A DNA stretch of 63,313 bases, counting the filler, from Sphacelaria rigidula (taxonomy: Eukaryota), in the NCBI GenBank assembly GCA_964200075.2. It is 8 parts of 8 records of this genome, joined end to end, with 100 filler letters (N's around TTAATTAATTAA, not from the genome) between each part and the next. Parts side by side here need not be neighbours in the genome. Positions count along the whole stretch, not along the records: positions 7,929 to 15,755 come from CAXNAA020013336.1; 7 more parts are not named here. One strand, written 5' to 3'. Position 1 is the stretch's first letter, and every line of letters starts with the position of its first letter. The position numbers and the translations under genes are program-made. This document shows, in pieces, positions 7,829-55,488 of the stretch. A model generated the notes under the pieces. The model searched no databases, had not been told where the DNA came from, and saw only the letters and a program-made list of their open reading frames with translations.

Positions 7829-7928
7829 NNNNNNNNNNNNNNNNNNNNNNNNNNNNNNNNNNNNNNNNNNNNTTAATTAATTAANNNNNNNNNNNNNNNN
7901 NNNNNNNNNNNNNNNNNNNNNNNNNNNN
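7829..7928. other. Artificial contig spacer
   Basis: 44 N + TTAATTAATTAA (stops in all six frames) + 44 N. Confidence 0.98.
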
Positions 7929-8383: not shown

Positions 8384-9947
8384 TCCAAAAGGGNNNNNNN
8401 NNNCGTCACGAGTCGACTCATTATACTAAACCCAAGTAATTTCCATACAATCATTATTTGTCCGACCCTTGGAATCTTCTCATAAACCCCAGACACGAGG
8501 TCAAAACACATCGGATCATATCCGCACAAGTCGCGCCTGAAGCACGTGCAACCCCCAGAGAATGAATACACCATAGCCTTCAGCTATTCAGCAACGGATG
8601 TTCGAGCCATACGCCAATGCTATGGGGGGCAAGATCATAAAACAGAGACACCAGGGGTTAAAATCAACACATTACATCCAACTCGATTTCATCTATACAA
8701 AGAACAACGCCGGGAACGGTCTCAGGATCCCATGTAACGAAAGATCTCGAGAGGATGCTTTCAACGACACCATTTTGGGTGGAGTGTCGACAGTTACAGT
8801 ACTGGAAATGGCTGAACATAAATGGGCTGGTTTCTCATCGTGCGTGCTACATTCCATATGACGCTTGCGGTAAGCACATCCGCACCTGTTCTAGGCGATG
8901 CAGTGTGTGACCACGTCACATGAGGTATAAGCCTCGTGAGCAGTACATCGGAGCATAGCACAGGACAGTGTTCAATAATTAATAGCGTGAAACATTTAGT
9001 ACTGCTGGTATGGTACGCTACGGAACGGCACAATATCGTACAGGACAGCAACGTTCAGTACAGTGTGAGACGCTCAAAAATCGAACCTCAAGAACGTCAA
9101 GGATTCCATCAGCGTACTTTCCCTCAATATTGATCCCTGTTGACCCACTCTGTATCTTACGCAAACATGATCGACTGTACTGACTGTACTGTACTCGTGA
9201 GAATCCTGTGAAGTTATGTTGTGACTAATAAATACACTGCCGTACGCCGTTACACTTTACAAAACTCTGAAGGTTTTGCACTTGCGGGTGATCCCCATAC
9301 CCGCACGAGGACTTCGCAGCTCAACCAAATGTACAGGCTGTATCCGGATAGTGCGGTGTCTGTCCCGTATACTACGCAGAGTATTAGTACAGTCTTATTG
9401 GCTCTTATCCTTCGTGTGCATCATACGGACAGAGTAACACTCAAGATTTGTTATGAGGTGAGCGGGTTTGCAACTACAACTTGCTGTTTGAGCTTGGATC
9501 ACGACAGCGAAGCGGAACATTTCCCCCCTATTGGGAGATGTGACTGAAGGGCAAGAGAACAAACTGCAAATACGCCCCCAACGATGCCCGATCAAACCAG
9601 GACAATCACCTGAATGACTATAGAGTTGACAAAGTAAGAATTTCTTGCAGAGCCTCGACTGCAATCGCCAGACAAGAGTCGAATAAACCGCCATCCACGT
9701 GGCCGTGCTGAGGTCGGTTCATGCATCCAAGGGTGATGGCTGACACAGATTACCTTGATACTGGAAACAAGATTTTCACCTCCTCCACGGTTTCGATACA
9801 ACAGAAAGAGAATCAACTTTCCAACTTTCCGTTTCAAAACCTACAGTCTGACTGTAACATTACCGCCATCCAAATGCAACGAGTCTGCACTTGGCGATAA
9901 CCCGACCCCCCCCCTCGACATCCCCTGGACGTGAACACAATACTAAC

Positions 9948-10259
9948 CGAAGGTGCCGAGAAGGAACGCCCACCCATGCGGCCGCCTGACCGCGCCGCCA
10001 AGGCATCCTGGGGTGCCGAAAAAGCGAGAGCCGCAACCGTCGCAGCCACAGTGAATTTCTTGGCCATGTCCGCTGCAAACACCTCCCAGCCGCTCTTCTT
10101 CTCGCCATCACCCTCAGGAGACGAGGAGGTCATACTCAAGCCACGGGGGCGTACGAGAGAGTTGCGTGAGAGAGTCGTGGGGGTGAAACGTGCTGACGGG
10201 ATGGGCACGAAGGCCCCTGCCGGCGCACAGGCCAGCAGGCATAATGATGCGGTCTTCAT
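9948..10259 (-). CDS. First exon of a plastid-targeted DUF1517 (FLAP1-like) protein
   Basis: MKTASLCLLACAPAGA-FVP is a signal peptide with an ASAFAP-type F. An S/T/R-rich transit peptide follows, then hydrophobic AATVAALAFSAPQDALA and ARSGGRMGGRSFSAPS, the SGGR.GG.SF start typical of DUF1517. Donor GTTAGT at 9947. Confidence 0.8.
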
Positions 10260-10693
10260 GTTGACAGGGTTGCTTAGGAGCAGGCGATGGGATTGAGTTC
10301 GGGTGCTAAAAACCTTGCTTGTGCAAAGCAGGGTTGCCAGTGTATGGTGACTCGTTGTCTTTATCAGTCCTGGTGTGTCCACGTGGAAAACTTGGTGGCC
10401 TTGTCTTGTGTGCTGATGATGAATCACGGCGCCGCCCACTGCAGTGCCAACGCAATAGGAACAGCTCAGCACCCAGATTTGTTTTTTCGTATTGTGTTTC
10501 CCCCATTTTCTCAGACCCACGACTTCTGAACTATTGAGTAATTGCGCCGCTTTTGTCAACTATTACTACTGTTGTTAGATACGTACTGTCGTCACTAGAG
10601 TATTGCTGTTGTGCGTCGGATGTACACGAAGTGCTCCTGTATTGCTCAGTATCGCACATCCAGCAAGACTTGTAGATATATGCTGTAGTCGAA

Positions 10694-13600
10694 ATGAGTA
10701 ATCTAGGCATAAGTGGAAGAATCGTACTTCTCTCCGTTGCATTACCGACAGCGTGGGCATGGTGGGCACCAACTACAGGAGCGCTATCATTTCGAACACG
10801 CACTTACTGGAGTACACGGAAACATGAACACACGACGGAGGCAACATGCAACCCACGGTGTCCCCCCATCATCAGAGCTGCCGTCAACAACAACATGGAA
10901 GCCGACCGCTTGGAACACATCGACACTCCTAGTGCCAATAATCCACTGGAAACTTCAACATCGCGCGGCGATTGGTTACGAACAGGGGCAGGGCTGGCTG
11001 CGATGGTACCTCTTGTATCGTCCGTTTTGTTAGGATCGCCAGCTGATGCTGCTGCTGCAAGAGCCGGATCTGGAACAGTTACCGTTATCGGCGCCGGCGG
11101 CAAAACCGGCAGGGAGTGTGTAGAGTATCTCGCGGCCAGTGGCACAGGAGAGTATTGTTCGTTTCATGTACTACTCCCTCTTTTAGCTTGCATTTTGTTT
11201 GTGTTGGTCGGTGTCGTGTGCAGATGGCGGTCGCGCACTCGTTTTCAAACACATGATGTGGTGCAGTCGCGGAGCAGGAGTTAGAGCGCGACAGATGTCA
11301 GACGGATTTGTATGTGCAACCAATCCCTATTTGTACAATTTGAGGATTTCAGCCCGTGTAAATACGATTTTCTCCCTTGGATTGATTTTTCGGGCCCCAG
11401 TCCGCTGGGCAATGTTTTTCGCCTAGCGTTGAGGAACAGATGCGGGAGTCTCCCGATCTGAGCAGAAAGGTGATGAACCAAAAGTCAGCGCCCAGAGAAT
11501 CGGAGAATTGATCTGGTTTCCTCAGAGCTAGGCGCAACACGGTATGGGTGAACCCACGATAGCACACGATCCTGTGCACACCATGGTTACAGTATTCGAT
11601 CGCTCGTGACGCTCACCCTCCCATTCCTCGCCGTCCTCGTTTCTGTCGCCGGCTAAACCATGCAGCAATGTGGTGCCCAATGGACTGGGGTCCGAAAAAT
11701 CCATCCACGGGAGAAAATCGGGTTTACGCGGGCTGAAATCCTCGAATTTGCACAAATACGGATTGGTTGACATGCAAATCATTCTTAGGCCAACTCTGAT
11801 GGGAGCGTTTAGAATTTTATTTTGCAATGATTTTGAAACGACTTTCTTTTTTTTTCTTTGCCGTGGTTGTGTAATGTGCCCGTTCACCACGATGACAAAG
11901 GAAGAAAAAAAACTCCTCTGAAATTGTTGCAAAAATAAAATTACCAACGCTCCCATTAGAGTTGGCCTTAGGCTACTTCTTATGTATCGAAAACCAAAAC
12001 TTGTTGAAAAGTGCATTTTTGGCCCTTGTCCGTCGTTTTCCCCCGAAAAGAGGGCTGAGCGGCTGTTAACACCTCGGGATGATATGCTCTACTCGCCGAG
12101 ACGGTTCCAGAGCACCTTTGCGTTTCCCGCAGGTCACGGTTTTGTTTTTGGCCAAACTTGCACTTTCAATAACAAACGGTCAAGTTATTATCTAAAAACA
12201 GGGGGAAACTGACATTTTCTCGATAACTTGACTGTTTGTCATTGAAAATGCAAGTTTGGCCAAAGACGAAGCCGTGACCTACGGAAAACGCGAAGGTGCT
12301 CTGGAACCGTCTCAGCGAGTAGAGCAAGTCATCCCAAGGTGTCAACAGCCGCCTAGCCCTCTTTTCGGGGGAAAAACGACGGAGAAGGGTCATAAAATTG
12401 CACTTTTCAACAACTTTTATCTTTTTTATACATAAGAAGTAGCCTCAGATCCACTTTTATGGCAACGAATCTCGATTTGTTCACATATGAGATTTTCAGC
12501 CCGTTCACAGGCGATTTTCTCCCGTGGATTGATTGATTTTTCGCGCCCCAGTCCGTTGGGCAATGTTTTTCGGCTACCTGTGAGCAAACCAGACCACTTC
12601 TCCGATTCTCTGGACGTTTACTTCCGGTATACCACCTCTCTGCTCAAATCGGGAGACTCCTGCATCTCCCCCGATTTTTTTTCAAATCGGGAAAAAATCG
12701 GGGAAGATGAGGAGGTGTCCCGATTTCAACAGGACGGTCATATATCGAATATTAACGCCCAGAAAATCGGAGAATCGATCTGGTTTGCTCACAGCTACAG
12801 TAGCCGAAAAACATAACCCAACGGAGTGAGGTCCGAAAAATCAATCCACGGAGAAAACCGCCTGTAGACGGGCTGAAATCCCCATATTTGTACAAATCGA
12901 GATTCGTTGCCATAAAAGTGGGTCTTGGGAAGCTCCTATTTTGAGCAAGGCTCGTATCTTACCTTCTCTCCCAATCCAGCAGAAATGCTCAAGTTTAAGT
13001 TCTTATTGTTCGAAGAGGTACAAAATGCCAAATGCTTAATTTTGAGATTCTTATTTTGCACATGCATCCAATACAGGATTTTCCCCCCTGAGCGATTGTC
13101 AAGAACCAAGTTTGTCTCATTGCATATGTATTACTCATAATCCGAAGTACTGTATTTCCCTAGATTTTCATGATGTGACGAAGCTCTCCAGGACTGCAGG
13201 GATAGAAGTTCATGTTGCCCACCTCCGATGACTACAAAACTGCTGTAGCACTGTACAACTGTAGCCAGAACAGCCACTCATTCGACATGGTCTATATTAC
13301 GCACGTTGGACGTTAATACCCTACTCCCTCCTACGGCCTGCCGGTTTTTTCCGGCTTGTTTCGAGATCTCCGCGCTGGCTGTTCTGCCCGCCCCTTCCGA
13401 CCGCACCCCTCCCTCCGCTGTTTGTTAGTAGGCTCTGGTAAAACCCTCTACCATAAGGGACGGCAGGTACAGTACTGTACCGTGCGCCAGCAGTAAGCAG
13501 CACGTAGACCAATCTTGTACCGGAAGACAAAATCGAAACAAAATACAGTACAGTACTGTACGAGTTTCGTATAGATTGTCATTATCCATGGGGTGGCCCA

Positions 13601-15109
13601 GTGGAGATCAATGTTGTTTGCCAGAGAGAAGGTCGCCTGCTTGGGGGCCTGATGTAGCCATGGTGGCTGTGGAGGCAGTTTCTTATGATTGTGAGGTGCA
13701 TCATCACAAATGTGTACCCGTAATTTCTTACTTTTCTAAAAAAAACGAGCCTGAGATTCTCAACGACCAAATTTTGAACATCTGGCGCGCTCTGTACTAC
13801 ACGTACTGTATCGAGCCCGACTCGTTACAGTACTGTTCTGTTGTTCCGCAGATACAGCGTTATGGATACTGTCCTGTATATCCCCACCGTGTGACGCGGC
13901 CCAACACCCCTGCTAGAGGGAGGATGACCTTCGACGCGCGAGCCATCTCGTAAATGTATCCATGTGTAGCGTGTGTACTTCACTGAGGTGGTACCGGCGT
14001 CGCCGTTTGCACTGCGAAGATCCTAAGCCGACGGTTGGCGTTCTTACCTCTAGTTCTGTACCACCTACAGAACCAGGAGTAGGGTCAGCAGTGACTGGTG
14101 GAGTCAGTGCAAGATGCGACTATTAGTAATAATCCTGCTGACAATCTTCACGACTAGTTTACCAAAACATGTATACGGTCTGAAGCCATGTACTTCTACA
14201 AGATTCCAAGTATCGTATATCAGGTACAGTAATATTACTCCCTTGCACGTGAAACCACTGGAGGCCAGGCACAAGCGACGGCCACCGTGCCCATCAGAAA
14301 CCTGACTGCTCGTTTGTTCTTCCCCTCGTTGTGTCTTTGACGCTCCGGAACTGCAAACATGTGGTCGCTGTTGCAGCGGTCAAAGCGGTTGCTCGCAGCC
14401 TGACCAATAAGGAAGGCGAACCGCTGCAGTACAAAACTACGGAAAAGGTTCAGCTCGCTACGGCGGACGTTACCGTGCCCGGCTCGCTACCTGAAGTCGT
14501 CAAAGGGTAAACTGAGAGAAAATAATTGTTCGAAAGAGCAGCGTACAGGAGACGACGCCAAATGTTCGGTAGCGTCAGGTGTTCGTACTCGATCCGATTG
14601 AGAGTTTGACGGGGCCTTGTTTCGCGCAGCACTTGTGGCAGTCATGATACTATACCACGGTTCCCGTCTGCCTTGCCATGTATAGCTTTAGGCTTGTGGC
14701 CTGCTGTAAGGGCTAGCTCTTGCTTATGTTGACGGGTTTCTGCGTACCCGCCGGCTGTGACTCCCTTCCCAAGATGTCTTCCTGAGCGGACTAGCGGCAG
14801 GGCAACCGCAAGTGCTCGCAGTCGAAGCTTGAGATTACATGTTGAAGGTTTCTGAGGATGCAGCGAAGTTTTTCACGACTGTATGTGGATGTTCACTATT
14901 TTCGGCAACATCCCCGTGGGTCCTGCATACAGCTGTTGGCCAAGGAACTGGCGACCAGGTCATACCAGTGCCACAAACGTACTTGCGATATGAACATTAA
15001 TTTTATTTTGTCCTCGCAACTTTTTTTGTGCGCCACAGAGCTTCGGCAGTCATTTTTGCATCGTCAGCAAGCAAGCAGGGAGGGTCTGCAAAGGCGGTGG
15101 ACTACGAAG
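10694..15109 (+). CDS. Plastid-targeted NAD(P)-binding Rossmann-fold protein (NAD_binding_10 / Tic62-like atypical SDR), 3'-partial
   Basis: Exon 10694-11147 ends VTVIGAGGKTGRECVEYLAASGT. Exon 14377-14506 reads AVKAVARS...ADVTVPGSLPEVVKG. Exon 15039-15109 reads ASAVIFASSASKQGGSAKAVDYEG. These are consecutive motifs of the family (GAxGxTG, xDVT, VIFxxSA, VDYxG). The signal peptide ends AWA-W. Intron 1 appears to use a GA donor. Confidence 0.85.
11301..12924. mobile_element. Four abutting foldback MITEs (PIF/Harbinger-like, TNA junctions) in intron 1 of the Rossmann gene
   Basis: Self-complementary units at 11301-11784, 11788-11967, 11971-12444 and 12448-12924, separated or flanked by TCA, TTA, TTA, TCA and TTG. 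Confidence 0.8.
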
Positions 15110-15755
15110 GTACTGCGTGCACTACTTTACCCATTGTGCGACGACAAACATCTCCTACTCGTGCATTATTTTTCAGTCGACTACAAACAAGCTAGTACAC
15201 CTTTCAATCGATACGTACGTCGGAGATGTGGACGCCGATGTGCATCTTGCTGTGGCGAATTGTTTCGCCCAACGCACGATCCGTTTCAGCAAGAAGCGAC
15301 AAAGCGACGGGTAGGCCGCCGCATTGCAACTCCCTTGGTCTGAGGAGGGAACGAGTAATAATAGTCACTGATAAGTTCGAACTTTTGTTCACCCTTCAAC
15401 GGGTGTCGTCCGGTTCCATGGAGGATGGTCAATCGCCTCAAGAAAGTAAAATCCCGGAGCTCAGTGTACCGTCGTTCTGGTGCAACAGGGTCCCATACAG
15501 TAATGCGTTTCCAATGTCCGCGAAATCATACTCTGGATAGGCATGTGCGTGCACTAACTGGTCAGAGACAGTGTAAACCCGTCTTTTTTAATACACGTTC
15601 CTTTGCTATATTTCCCATCTGTGTGTCTCTGTCTCTATTCCATTCGCTCGTCGCATGCGGAACTGTCCTTCTTCCCGCCCTTCCCCCGCATGCCATAGTA
15701 CAACCCCCCCCCCCCCCCCCCCCCCCCCCACCCAACCCCCCACCCCGGTCGCATC

Positions 15756-15855
15756 NNNNNNNNNNNNNNNNNNNNNNNNNNNNNNNNNNNNNNNNNNNNT
15801 TAATTAATTAANNNNNNNNNNNNNNNNNNNNNNNNNNNNNNNNNNNNNNNNNNNN
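15756..15855. other. Artificial contig spacer
   Basis: 44 N + TTAATTAATTAA + 44 N. Confidence 0.98.
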
Positions 15856-16002: not shown

Positions 16003-19000
16003 GCTCGTTTCTACTGGAGGCCGAACTCTACCGACGACGTCAACGACGATGGTGCGTGTGTCATTGCCATCACCGACGTCGACTTCAACTACCAGTTCGA
16101 GTACCTGGGGTCGAAGGAGCGTTTGGTGGTTACGCCGCTTACTGATAGGTGAAGACTCTACCTATGTGTATATATAAATATGAACAATTGCCCAGGCTCG
16201 CCGTTTCAGAGTACACGCGGGTAGTGCTTGCTCATTGCGGTGGGTTAGTAAGGTTTCTCGTGCAGCGCCACGAAGGAGAGAGTAGTGTTTGCCTATAGAG
16301 CAGGGTTTCCAGTCGATGGAAACAGAGCAGTGTAGATCGTGGAAGGTATCTTGAGTCGGTGATCGAGCAAGCGAGTACCTGTAACCGCACTACTGTAGAA
16401 TAACAAAACTGGAGTGTCATACGAGGTCGCTGGTTTGATACCCCTCGACCGAGAGGACTTCATTTCTTTCGTGGACGTGGGTTAGATGCGTGAACCTCCA
16501 CTAGCTAGTGGTCGCTTCCCTGCTATCCGATGGCCACGGTCCCGCTGCGGTGTCGTGCGCACGATGAAACACGCCAGTCTCTGGCGTTTTCCCCTTCAAG
16601 GCGCTCATGACTGACAACTGTTGTCATTTTCGATTTGCCGTACCGATTCAGTTATCGCTGTCCCGTCGCGATGCCCCCACTTTCAAATACTCTCCGTTCT
16701 AGTCCCTCCCGTGAATGAAAATATAAAAAAAATACCATCATTATGGATGGGATGCGATGAGATAGATGGGTCCTTTTTTTACGAGGTGCGTTTTTTTCTG
16801 GCTTTGGGGGTTTTGGACAAGGGGAAGACGGTATGGACTCACCCCTTTTGTCCAGACAATCCCACCATTGGGTTTGTACTCCTCCTTGACACCACTAACA
16901 ACGCAGGGCGTACATCACTCTTGCTCAAGCTTTGGGAATGTACTTCGGGGGCGCTCCCGCGGGTCCCGCCGGTACGGGGAAGACCGAGTCCGTCAAGGAT
17001 CTGGGGCGTGCGCTGGGAATCTTTGTGGTGAGCTATAATACTGTAGCTGTTGATCGGGTGGAGTCCGTAGATCGCGAATGAAACGGGCCCACCGGCATCC
17101 AACGCTTTTCAATTTTTATACTAGTTTCTCCCGCCACGTGCTTTTTTTGCGTGTGCCTTTTTGTGCAAGGCGTTTTTCACCTGTAGCGATGTTTGCACAG
17201 ACCGGCCAATTTTTGTCTTTCGTATTTTAGTCTTTTGTTTTTTTTTGTTTTTGTATTTTTGTATTTTTGCTCTTCTTCTTGGCCCACTCTGTTTGTTTGT
17301 TCTATCTCTCTTTTCTCTCCACTCTCCTTCAGCCGGTGTTTCCGTTCTGGTTTTACCTTGGGCACTCGTATTTGTCTTGTGGATAATGACCACTGCTAGA
17401 TCACTCGGCAATCAGTTAATGCGCAACAAATGATCAGTCCCGTCATGAATCATTTGCTGCTGGTATCAATCGAAGGCTACCGCGTGCACACAGAAAGAGC
17501 ATTCATCTGTCCGACGAAAGCTATCACAAGTTGACGAACACATACCCATCTCTCTGCATCCTTTCTCCGACCCCTCGACTGCATGATGGAACAGGTTGTG
17601 ACGAACTGCACCGATCAGCAGAAATACACCGATTGCGCGAAGATCTTCAAGGGGCTGTGTCAGGGAGGTCTGTGGGGGTGCTTCGATGAGTTCAACCGCA
17701 TTTTACTGCCAGTGCTTTCGGTTGTAGCCCAGCAGGTGAAGGAATGAATAGCAGGCCTATCGGTTCGCATGCACCGAGTGCAGTGTGAACTTTGGGCAAA
17801 AACACGGCATAAAGTCCTACAAAATGATGTTGATATGTCTTGCTGTTTTTTCGCTCATGCAGATCGTCCATCAATAAATCAATACATAAGTGCGGTTTGA
17901 ACGTAAAGCGAAAAAAAAGAAAAAAACGCCGTGTAAGGCCCTGACGTTGTGTTGAATCTACACTTCAAGTTTGTTGTTTTTTCGTCGCTCCTGCAGATTG
18001 TCTGGCGTGCTTGCCACCGCTCCTGCCATCTCGAGCCGCCCGAAGAGACGGACGGCCGCATTCACCACCTGCTCACAACCCGACCCTCTGTTACCGAGTG
18101 CATCAGGTACTCGCGATCCAGAACGCCAAAAAGACAGGCATGGAGTACTTCCAATTCCCTGGCGACCCGCAGAACATCCTGTTGAAGCCAGTGTGTGGAT
18201 TCTTCATCACGATGAACCCCGGATACGCTGGCAGACAGGAACTGCCGGAGAATCTCAAGGCTCTGTTCCGGGGCGTAGCCATGATGGTTCCCGATTTCCA
18301 GATCATCATGAAGGCAAGCATAGACAAAAATGCGGCATTTATAGCGTAGAAAAGTGCTGCGTGTAGTCGCATTTCACGTGCTGGTGGCCGAAGCAGGCCT
18401 GCGTTTTGATTGAAGCACAACGGTGGGTCGTCCACATGACGTCCTCATGTATACATATATTGGGGTTCGGCTCACGATCCATGCGCGGACGGCGCACACA
18501 GCACGTGGGTCAGGGTTGGGGTTAGGGCTACGGTTAGGGGATTTTGGATTAGGGTTAGGGTGTACGGAAGATATGCGTTTATATGAGTCATCGTTTTTCA
18601 TCAACACCGCTTCATGAGCACATGTACTCGCTGTGTGCGCGCACCACAAGACACGCCTATCATTCATTTATGGGGGGGTGGGGTCTCCATTCATCAGGTG
18701 AAGCTGTGTTCAGTGGGATACGGAGAGTTCGAGATTCTCTCTCAGAAGTTTTTCGTGCTGTACAACACGTGCAAGGAGCAGCTGTCGGCACAGAAACACT
18801 ACGACTGGGGGCTGAGGAATATTCTTGCTGTGAGTACCCTGCCGCGAAAACTGCGAACGATTAGTTCGCAAATTTAACGGCGATCACGTCGATGTGGTGG
18901 GAGTTAATATTGCCCTGGAAATACCGAAATTCCTCGTTGTCCGTGCCGATGTTGATCACACTATAAGGCAAGCTGCCTACGAGTTAATTTCCCAGGTTAC

Positions 19001-23682: not shown

Positions 23683-23782
23683 NNNNNNNNNNNNNNNNNN
23701 NNNNNNNNNNNNNNNNNNNNNNNNNNTTAATTAATTAANNNNNNNNNNNNNNNNNNNNNNNNNNNNNNNNNNNNNNNNNNNN
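23683..23782. other. Artificial contig spacer
   Basis: 44 N + TTAATTAATTAA + 44 N. Confidence 0.98.
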
Positions 23783-31609: not shown

Positions 31610-31709
31610 NNNNNNNNNNNNNNNNNNNNNNNNNNNNNNNNNNNNNNNNNNNNTTAATTAATTAANNNNNNNNNNNNNNNNNNNNNNNNNNNNNNNNNNN
31701 NNNNNNNNN
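31610..31709. other. Artificial contig spacer
   Basis: 44 N + TTAATTAATTAA + 44 N. Confidence 0.98.
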
Positions 31710-39536: not shown

Positions 39537-39636
39537 NNNNNNNNNNNNNNNNNNNNNNNNNNNNNNNNNNNNNNNNNNNNTTAATTAATTAANNNNNNNN
39601 NNNNNNNNNNNNNNNNNNNNNNNNNNNNNNNNNNNN
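39537..39636. other. Artificial contig spacer
   Basis: 44 N + TTAATTAATTAA + 44 N. Confidence 0.98.
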
Positions 39637-47462: not shown

Positions 47463-47562
47463 NNNNNNNNNNNNNNNNNNNNNNNNNNNNNNNNNNNNNN
47501 NNNNNNTTAATTAATTAANNNNNNNNNNNNNNNNNNNNNNNNNNNNNNNNNNNNNNNNNNNN
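47463..47562. other. Artificial contig spacer
   Basis: 44 N + TTAATTAATTAA + 44 N. Confidence 0.98.
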
Positions 47563-55388: not shown

Positions 55389-55488
55389 NNNNNNNNNNNN
55401 NNNNNNNNNNNNNNNNNNNNNNNNNNNNNNNNTTAATTAATTAANNNNNNNNNNNNNNNNNNNNNNNNNNNNNNNNNNNNNNNNNNNN
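55389..55488. other. Artificial contig spacer
   Basis: 44 N + TTAATTAATTAA + 44 N. Confidence 0.98.

Follow-up and report, generated by a model that had tools for sequence, protein, structure and literature searches.

In the brown alga Sphacelaria rigidula, a nuclear gene that encodes an NAD(P)H-binding Rossmann-fold protein very probably has a genuine GA-AG intron as its first intron, with donor CAG/GAGAGTAT and acceptor TTGCAG/C (a slash marks the exon-intron boundary). The gene lies within a window of 63,313 bases, the whole stretch of DNA analysed here, which is drawn from assembly GCA_964200075.2. An intron that opens with GA is normally not spliced; such a start is taken for a mutation or a mistake, and many annotation pipelines reject it. 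GA-AG introns are nonetheless a rare but already documented class, and intron 1 belongs to it. The intron is removed precisely, its removal leaves an in-frame product, and genomic DNA carries A at +2. These observations bear out a first-pass annotation that had proposed a functional GA-AG intron of 3.2 kb: transcript contigs lack the intron, A stands at position 11149, and the joined exons restore the spacing of orthologous proteins.

The window reads CAG/GAGAGT at 11145-11153 and TTGCAG/CGG at 14371-14379, so the first-pass placement of GAGAGT at 11148-11153 and of a phase-1 exon start after TTGCAG is exact in letters and coordinates. The stretch CAGGAGAGT occurs once in the window when both strands are searched. 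Eight public runs contain the stretch, four from study P1 (RNA by guess) and four from study P2 (kind unstated). We compared X1 and X2 (P1) and X5 and X6 (P2) with the window and left out X3, X4, X7 and X8. X1 and X2 are transcript assemblies, with exon-limited cover and intron-skipping contigs. We treat them as RNA because their cover concentrates on exons, chiefly 10300-11200, 14282-14640 and 15006-15186, and because intron 2 is also skipped, at its GT..AG ends. X5 and X6 are DNA, since they cover unique sequence evenly and their contigs run unbroken through introns, over 10300-11407 and from 13657/14019 to 15676/15700, with no differences from the window.

Both transcript assemblies contain the predicted junction. 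The joint 11147->14377, as predicted by the first-pass annotation, is present in one contig of X1 (27 nucleotides (nt) on the short side) and one of X2 (133 nt on the short side of a 3067-nt contig), with exactly 3229 nt skipped and no letters in between. Exon 1 is covered by an X1 contig (10607-11147) and an X2 contig (10300-11144, plus 3), both with 0 other letters. The joined form appears in 2/2 transcript-like runs and 0/2 DNA-like runs; its absence from X5 and X6 means that it is not a processed DNA copy.

The exact placement of the cut is a choice made on mechanism. Because CAG stands at both ends of the missing segment, four placements are permitted (CA..TG, AG..GC, GG..CA and GA..AG). 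None of the four is GT-AG, GC-AG or AT-AC on either strand, and GA..AG is the sole placement with an AG acceptor and a U1-like donor. The same CAG/CAG pair is a short direct repeat bounding the deleted segment, as seen in template-switch artefacts, and the evidence consists of assembled contigs; reverse-transcriptase switching at this 3-nt repeat, or a contig mis-join, could produce such a joint. We consider this very improbable. In two runs, from two samples, the joined form predominates, the joint is in frame at an intron position common to 9/9 homologues and restores orthologue spacing, and CAG before a donor and CAG at an acceptor are plain splice-site consensus.

The A at +2 is reproducible. 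The first-pass annotation had allowed for a base-call error, an explanation that falls away when the genomic base at 11149 is looked at: it is A in the DNA contigs of X5 and X6 (10300-11407) and also in an X1 contig that is unspliced (11118-11467), each with 0 other letters. A different concern is that the assembly and DNA runs hold a dead A allele while a GT (or GC) allele, present in the RNA source because of heterozygosity or mixing of the culture, gives rise to the spliced transcripts. Spliced contigs lack the intron and are silent on their allele of origin, contigs lose minor variants, and the unspliced A-bearing contig does occur in X1. Yet the RNA source shares the assembly genotype wherever the two are comparable. 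Over about 2.8 kb per run, the listed X1 and X2 pieces from unique sequence do not differ from the window, so that a lone difference exactly at +2 would be a coincidence; the only listed mismatches are 2 letters inside a 61-nt repeat piece, and unspliced intron pieces of 350, 621 and 1027 nt match with 0 other letters. The window, X5, X6 and X1 each give A independently.

Intron retention points the same way. Unspliced cover of intron 1 against intron 2 is 0.4-7 against about 4 in X2 and 4-10 against 2.4 in X1, with spliced contigs at 165-825, all rough figures from contig-mean depths. By this rough measure, intron 1 is retained no more than the canonical intron 2, whereas a dead allele would be expected to give far more retention. 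The splice-damaging allele that the first-pass annotation had listed is accordingly unlikely, and a GA-AG intron in active use remains our reading.

Comparison with orthologues argues for the same junction. A search with the exon 1 protein found 16 proteins, either unnamed or Ectocarpus proteins named 'NAD(P)-binding domain-containing', and the closest solved structure is Arabidopsis At5g02240 (8e-10). Taken singly, the window's exon 1 and exon 2 pieces match 0 Pfam families, exons 4 onward lying outside the window; the orthologues P0012 (1.2e-31) and P0013 (1.1e-32) match PF13460 (NAD_binding_10) and uphold the earlier Rossmann-fold assignment. Exon 1 carries the dinucleotide-binding motif GAGGKTG, and the basic residue expected to close the second strand, an Arg 26 residues past the first Gly of the motif, appears only with the GA-AG join. 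All nine aligned brown-alga homologues are conserved through ...EYLAxxGxG and diverge directly after. Conservation stops at the same point in 9/9, and the phase-1 intron position is therefore shared. The Ectocarpus-type proteins P0011, P0012 and P0013 continue V(R/K)AVARS with the same spacing and length as the RNA join, as the first-pass annotation had foreseen in stating that the GA join fits Rossmann spacing without indels. The junction codon is Ala (G+CG) in the RNA join and Gly in the orthologues, at equal length.

A metagenome scan found only three loci of one GC-rich, intron-less homologue (L001) whose Gly-to-Arg spacing is identical to that of the RNA join, and a prokaryote genome scan gave 14 pattern matches, none of them related. 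In a homology scan of all donor/acceptor pairs, no canonical pair restored orthologue spacing. The best canonical pair scored 124, against 137 for the best placement, which creates the Gly codon and is unsupported by RNA; the RNA-supported join lies outside the scored set and would score about 131 by estimate.

Alternative in-phase donors are poor. Those nearby are GT at 11139 (cca/GTGGCA) and GT at 11157 (att/GTTCGT), both as first described, to which we add GC at 11142 (gtg/GCACAG). All have poor flanks, and joined to 14377 they would give proteins 3 residues shorter (11139), 2 shorter (11142) and 3 longer (11157) than the GA join.

The GA donor is exceptionally strong outside +2. Against a generic U1-complementary consensus, which may differ from that of this organism's own U1, it matches 10/11 positions from -3 to +8 and 9/9 outside +1 and +2, in agreement with the near-perfect U1-type consensus noted at first pass. 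Ten other donors in the window have lower flank matches: 3-7/9 for the nine GT donors and 7/9 for the single GC donor (18314). Rfam returned 0 matches on the window, and no U1 gene was found within it. The commonest donor hexamer of Ectocarpus is GTGAGT, as described in passages of PMC3787667, and GAGAGT is one step from it.

These features suggest how the intron is removed. The major (U2-type) spliceosome is the likely agent because passages of the Phaeoexplorer preprint (10.1101/2024.02.19.579948) describe brown algae as having no U12 intron signatures and as lacking nearly all minor-spliceosome genes. U1, and later U6/U5, would recognise the donor despite A at +2, the weak +2 presumably being paid for by strong flanks in the same trade-off as at GC donors. 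A T (or C) to A change in a donor of the GTGAGT type is the most likely origin of the GA, because the intron position is old, conserved and phase-1; with an otherwise optimal site, the change would have been tolerated.

Other machinery or a multi-step route appears exceedingly improbable. Non-canonical ends elsewhere are sometimes explained by such routes, the candidates here being a U12-type intron, a nested stwintron with a GT donor made by its inner intron, and an antisense GT-AG intron, the antisense CT-AC case being discussed in passages of PMC7072748. The U12 donor consensus differs from the donor GAGAGTAT, the U12 branch motif is absent from the last 50 nt of intron 1, and the preprint's passages on brown algae again report no U12 introns. 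Positions 11149-11150 are AG, with no GT after the first G, so an inner intron cannot rebuild a GT donor. None of the four placements is CT..AC on the + strand. Removal of a GA-AG intron by the major spliceosome stays the preferred account.

Several points weigh against this account. The data fix just a 3229-nt deletion, and the GA..AG placement was picked on mechanistic grounds. Transcript evidence comes from one study, as assembled contigs rather than raw reads, and from runs whose RNA status was guessed. Since contigs lose rare variants, a minor T allele or minor joints at 11139 or 11157 may exist. The junction was taken from among the joints listed, and seven further joints exist beyond them. 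Finally, the use of U1 and of the major spliceosome was deduced, with a generic U1 consensus.

GA is the exception in this sequence. In the dynein heavy chain piece of the window, eight junctions resolved against homologues P0049 and P0027 comprise 7 GT-AG and 1 GC-AG, none requiring GA, where one P0027 junction is counted as canonical although its top score was non-canonical (111 against 104 for GT-AG) and the junction 19966->21106, probably a missed small exon, falls outside the resolved set. With 8/8 resolved dynein introns being GT/GC-AG, GA is therefore exceptional here. Overall, one GA stands among 11 donors (eight dynein, two further in the Rossmann gene, and the GA itself), a biased sample since the window was picked for GA. 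The GC-AG intron of the dynein gene (18314-18697, aag/GCAAGCAT ... CATCAG/g) was placed by homology, and its donor flank (7/9) is stronger than the GT donors'.

Known GA donors resemble this one in part. In human, GA donors number 14 among 222,263 introns, FGFR1-3 among them, according to passages of PMC5714493. The vertebrate FGFR1-3 sites (Brackenridge et al. 2003), as described in parts of PMC6280755, PMC7072748 and PMC5714493, are efficiently used by the major spliceosome and have a strong surrounding consensus; our site shares the consensus, and probably the spliceosome. They differ in being alternative donors, where GA here is seemingly the main or only donor. They are also said to depend on a canonical GT located six nucleotides upstream; here no GT stands at -6, the nearest upstream GT being 9 nt away (11139, -9) and others farther.

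Within the same supergroup, the stramenopile Blastocystis has 59 GA-AG introns, about 0.16% of all in ST1, in the account given in part of PMC5608401. It shares the rare intron class but is a distant, parasitic, intron-small lineage with no tie to this gene. In the copepod Eurytemora affinis and in Oikopleura dioica, GA/GG donors account for about 3-12% of introns and are regarded as recent gains, as described in passages of PMC5714493 and PMC7072748. As in our intron, the GA site there is preceded by AG, which is obligate, and followed by a strong consensus; GA donors are numerous there, whereas in our window GT/GC-AG accounts for 8/8 resolved dynein introns, and the position of our intron is old. 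Closer by, Ectocarpus introns are 95.3% GT-AG and the rest GC-AG, as given in passages of PMC3787667. Such GC-AG introns likewise tolerate a +2 deviation with strong flanks (7/9 at the window's GC donor at 18314), but C at +2 is common and accepted by pipelines, and A at +2 is neither. In full-text literature on GA-AG with brown alga, and on GC-AG with Ectocarpus, GA-AG introns went unreported for brown algae; broader coverage was poorly targeted, and supplementary splice-site tables might hold one.

The gene model could be refined at two points. The start codon is more likely ATG 10694 (MSNLG...) than the 10895 first proposed, as orthologue N-termini align with 10694, and exon 2 ends at 14506 rather than 14511 according to the window translation and the X2 contig. 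Beyond 15110, the sequence of X1 and X2 translates to VVNVAKACLE, the orthologues' next block. A 30-mer from this loose end has 0 matches within the window, where piece 2, the piece that carries the gene, stops at 15755.

Features of the Rossmann-fold gene and its first introns, in window coordinates
Feature	Position	Strand	Remarks
Exon 1, coding part	10694..11147	+	ATG 10694, signal-peptide-like N-terminus, second hydrophobic stretch, GAGGKTG motif; phase-1 end ...GGC ACA G
5' splice site, non-canonical: GAGAGTAT after CAG	11148..11155	+	A at +2 = 11149
Intron 1, GA..AG, 3229 nt	11148..14376	+	Missing from transcript contigs (joint 11144->14374, 3 letters fit both sides)
Nested direct and inverted repeats in intron 1	11337..12929	.	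High-copy genomic elements
Intron 1 3' end: C/T-rich stretch, TTGCAG terminus, candidate branch site in CTTTGAC	14327..14376	+	
Exon 2, 130 nt	14377..14506	+	X2 contig over 14374-14506
Intron 2, canonical GT..AG, 532 nt	14507..15038	+	Skipped in X1 and X2 (14505->15038, cut +1)
Exon 3, 71 nt	15039..15109	+	Translation agrees with orthologues
Intron 3 donor aag/GTACTGCG	15110..15117	+	Same loose end beyond 15110 in X1 and X2

The protein may be directed to the plastid, as its N-terminal presequence suggests. The N-terminus (10694-11060) has a hydrophobic, signal-peptide-like stretch ending AWA then W, and a second hydrophobic stretch ending in an Ala run. It looks like a bipartite plastid presequence of the heterokont type, which may include a thylakoid-lumen domain. 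A divergent neighbour gene on the minus strand (9837-10559) also has a plastid-targeting-like N-terminus (MKTASLCLLACAPAGA then F), and the 3067-nt X2 contig extends from the 5' end of the Rossmann gene across it.

Intron 1 is rich in repeats. About half of its 3.2 kb consists of nested direct and inverted copies of short elements, with three direct families and nine inverted pairs, one of the pairs having 153-nt arms, 90% complementary, 34 nt apart. Word depth in the DNA runs is 10^3-10^5 in these repeats against 10-73 in the unique flanks, and they look like high-copy elements of the miniature inverted-repeat transposable element (MITE) kind.

The window itself is a composite. Seven identical linkers (44 N, TTAATTAATTAA, 44 N) at 7829-7928, 15756-15855, 23683-23782, 31610-31709, 39537-39636, 47463-47562 and 55389-55488 split it into eight pieces of about 7.8 kb, and gene content switches at the linkers. 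The pieces are not contiguous DNA, because exon 4 of the Rossmann gene is missing from the window. Pfam matches are a protein kinase in piece 1, a dynein heavy chain in piece 3 and, in piece 5, a NuoG-like 4Fe-4S domain; orthologues identify the Rossmann gene in piece 2. Piece 2 also has a run of about 30 C near its end (15700-15745) and a separate 10-N gap at 8394-8403.

Ectocarpus gene models falter at this same junction. The P0007, P0008 and P0010 models read GTGE/AVARS, one residue short of GTGV(R)AVARS, and the P0009 model reads through the site. GTGE arises if a predictor skips a G/GNGAGT donor and pairs the GT at +5/+6 with an AG inside the Arg codon, a pattern that suggests a true donor unusable for the predictor in Ectocarpus too. 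A Gly codon has its third base at donor position +2, and read-through proteins therefore cannot reveal the base there. Several of P0007-P0011 must be mis-spliced predictions. The five models disagree at two exon junctions, the second showing extra or altered residues after DYEG. Could the non-GT donor be old and kept across brown algae, rather than a recent accident? We hold this as a tentative and somewhat doubtful possibility; the same models err at another junction, and noise in the annotation is a reasonable other explanation. Were A, or any other base but T, conserved at +2, the weak site might be under selection, for instance for splicing-level control of a plastid protein, and canonical-only pipelines would mis-model such genes systematically in brown-alga genomes.

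The intron of S. rigidula presents a GA donor as the main site of a conserved gene, in an otherwise GT/GC-AG genome and in a lineage reported to be without the minor spliceosome. It offers a clean natural case in which tolerance at +2 would be bought by a perfect flank. It is also a warning for the group: gene models of brown algae that follow canonical-only rules can err at such junctions, as four orthologous Ectocarpus models do at this one.

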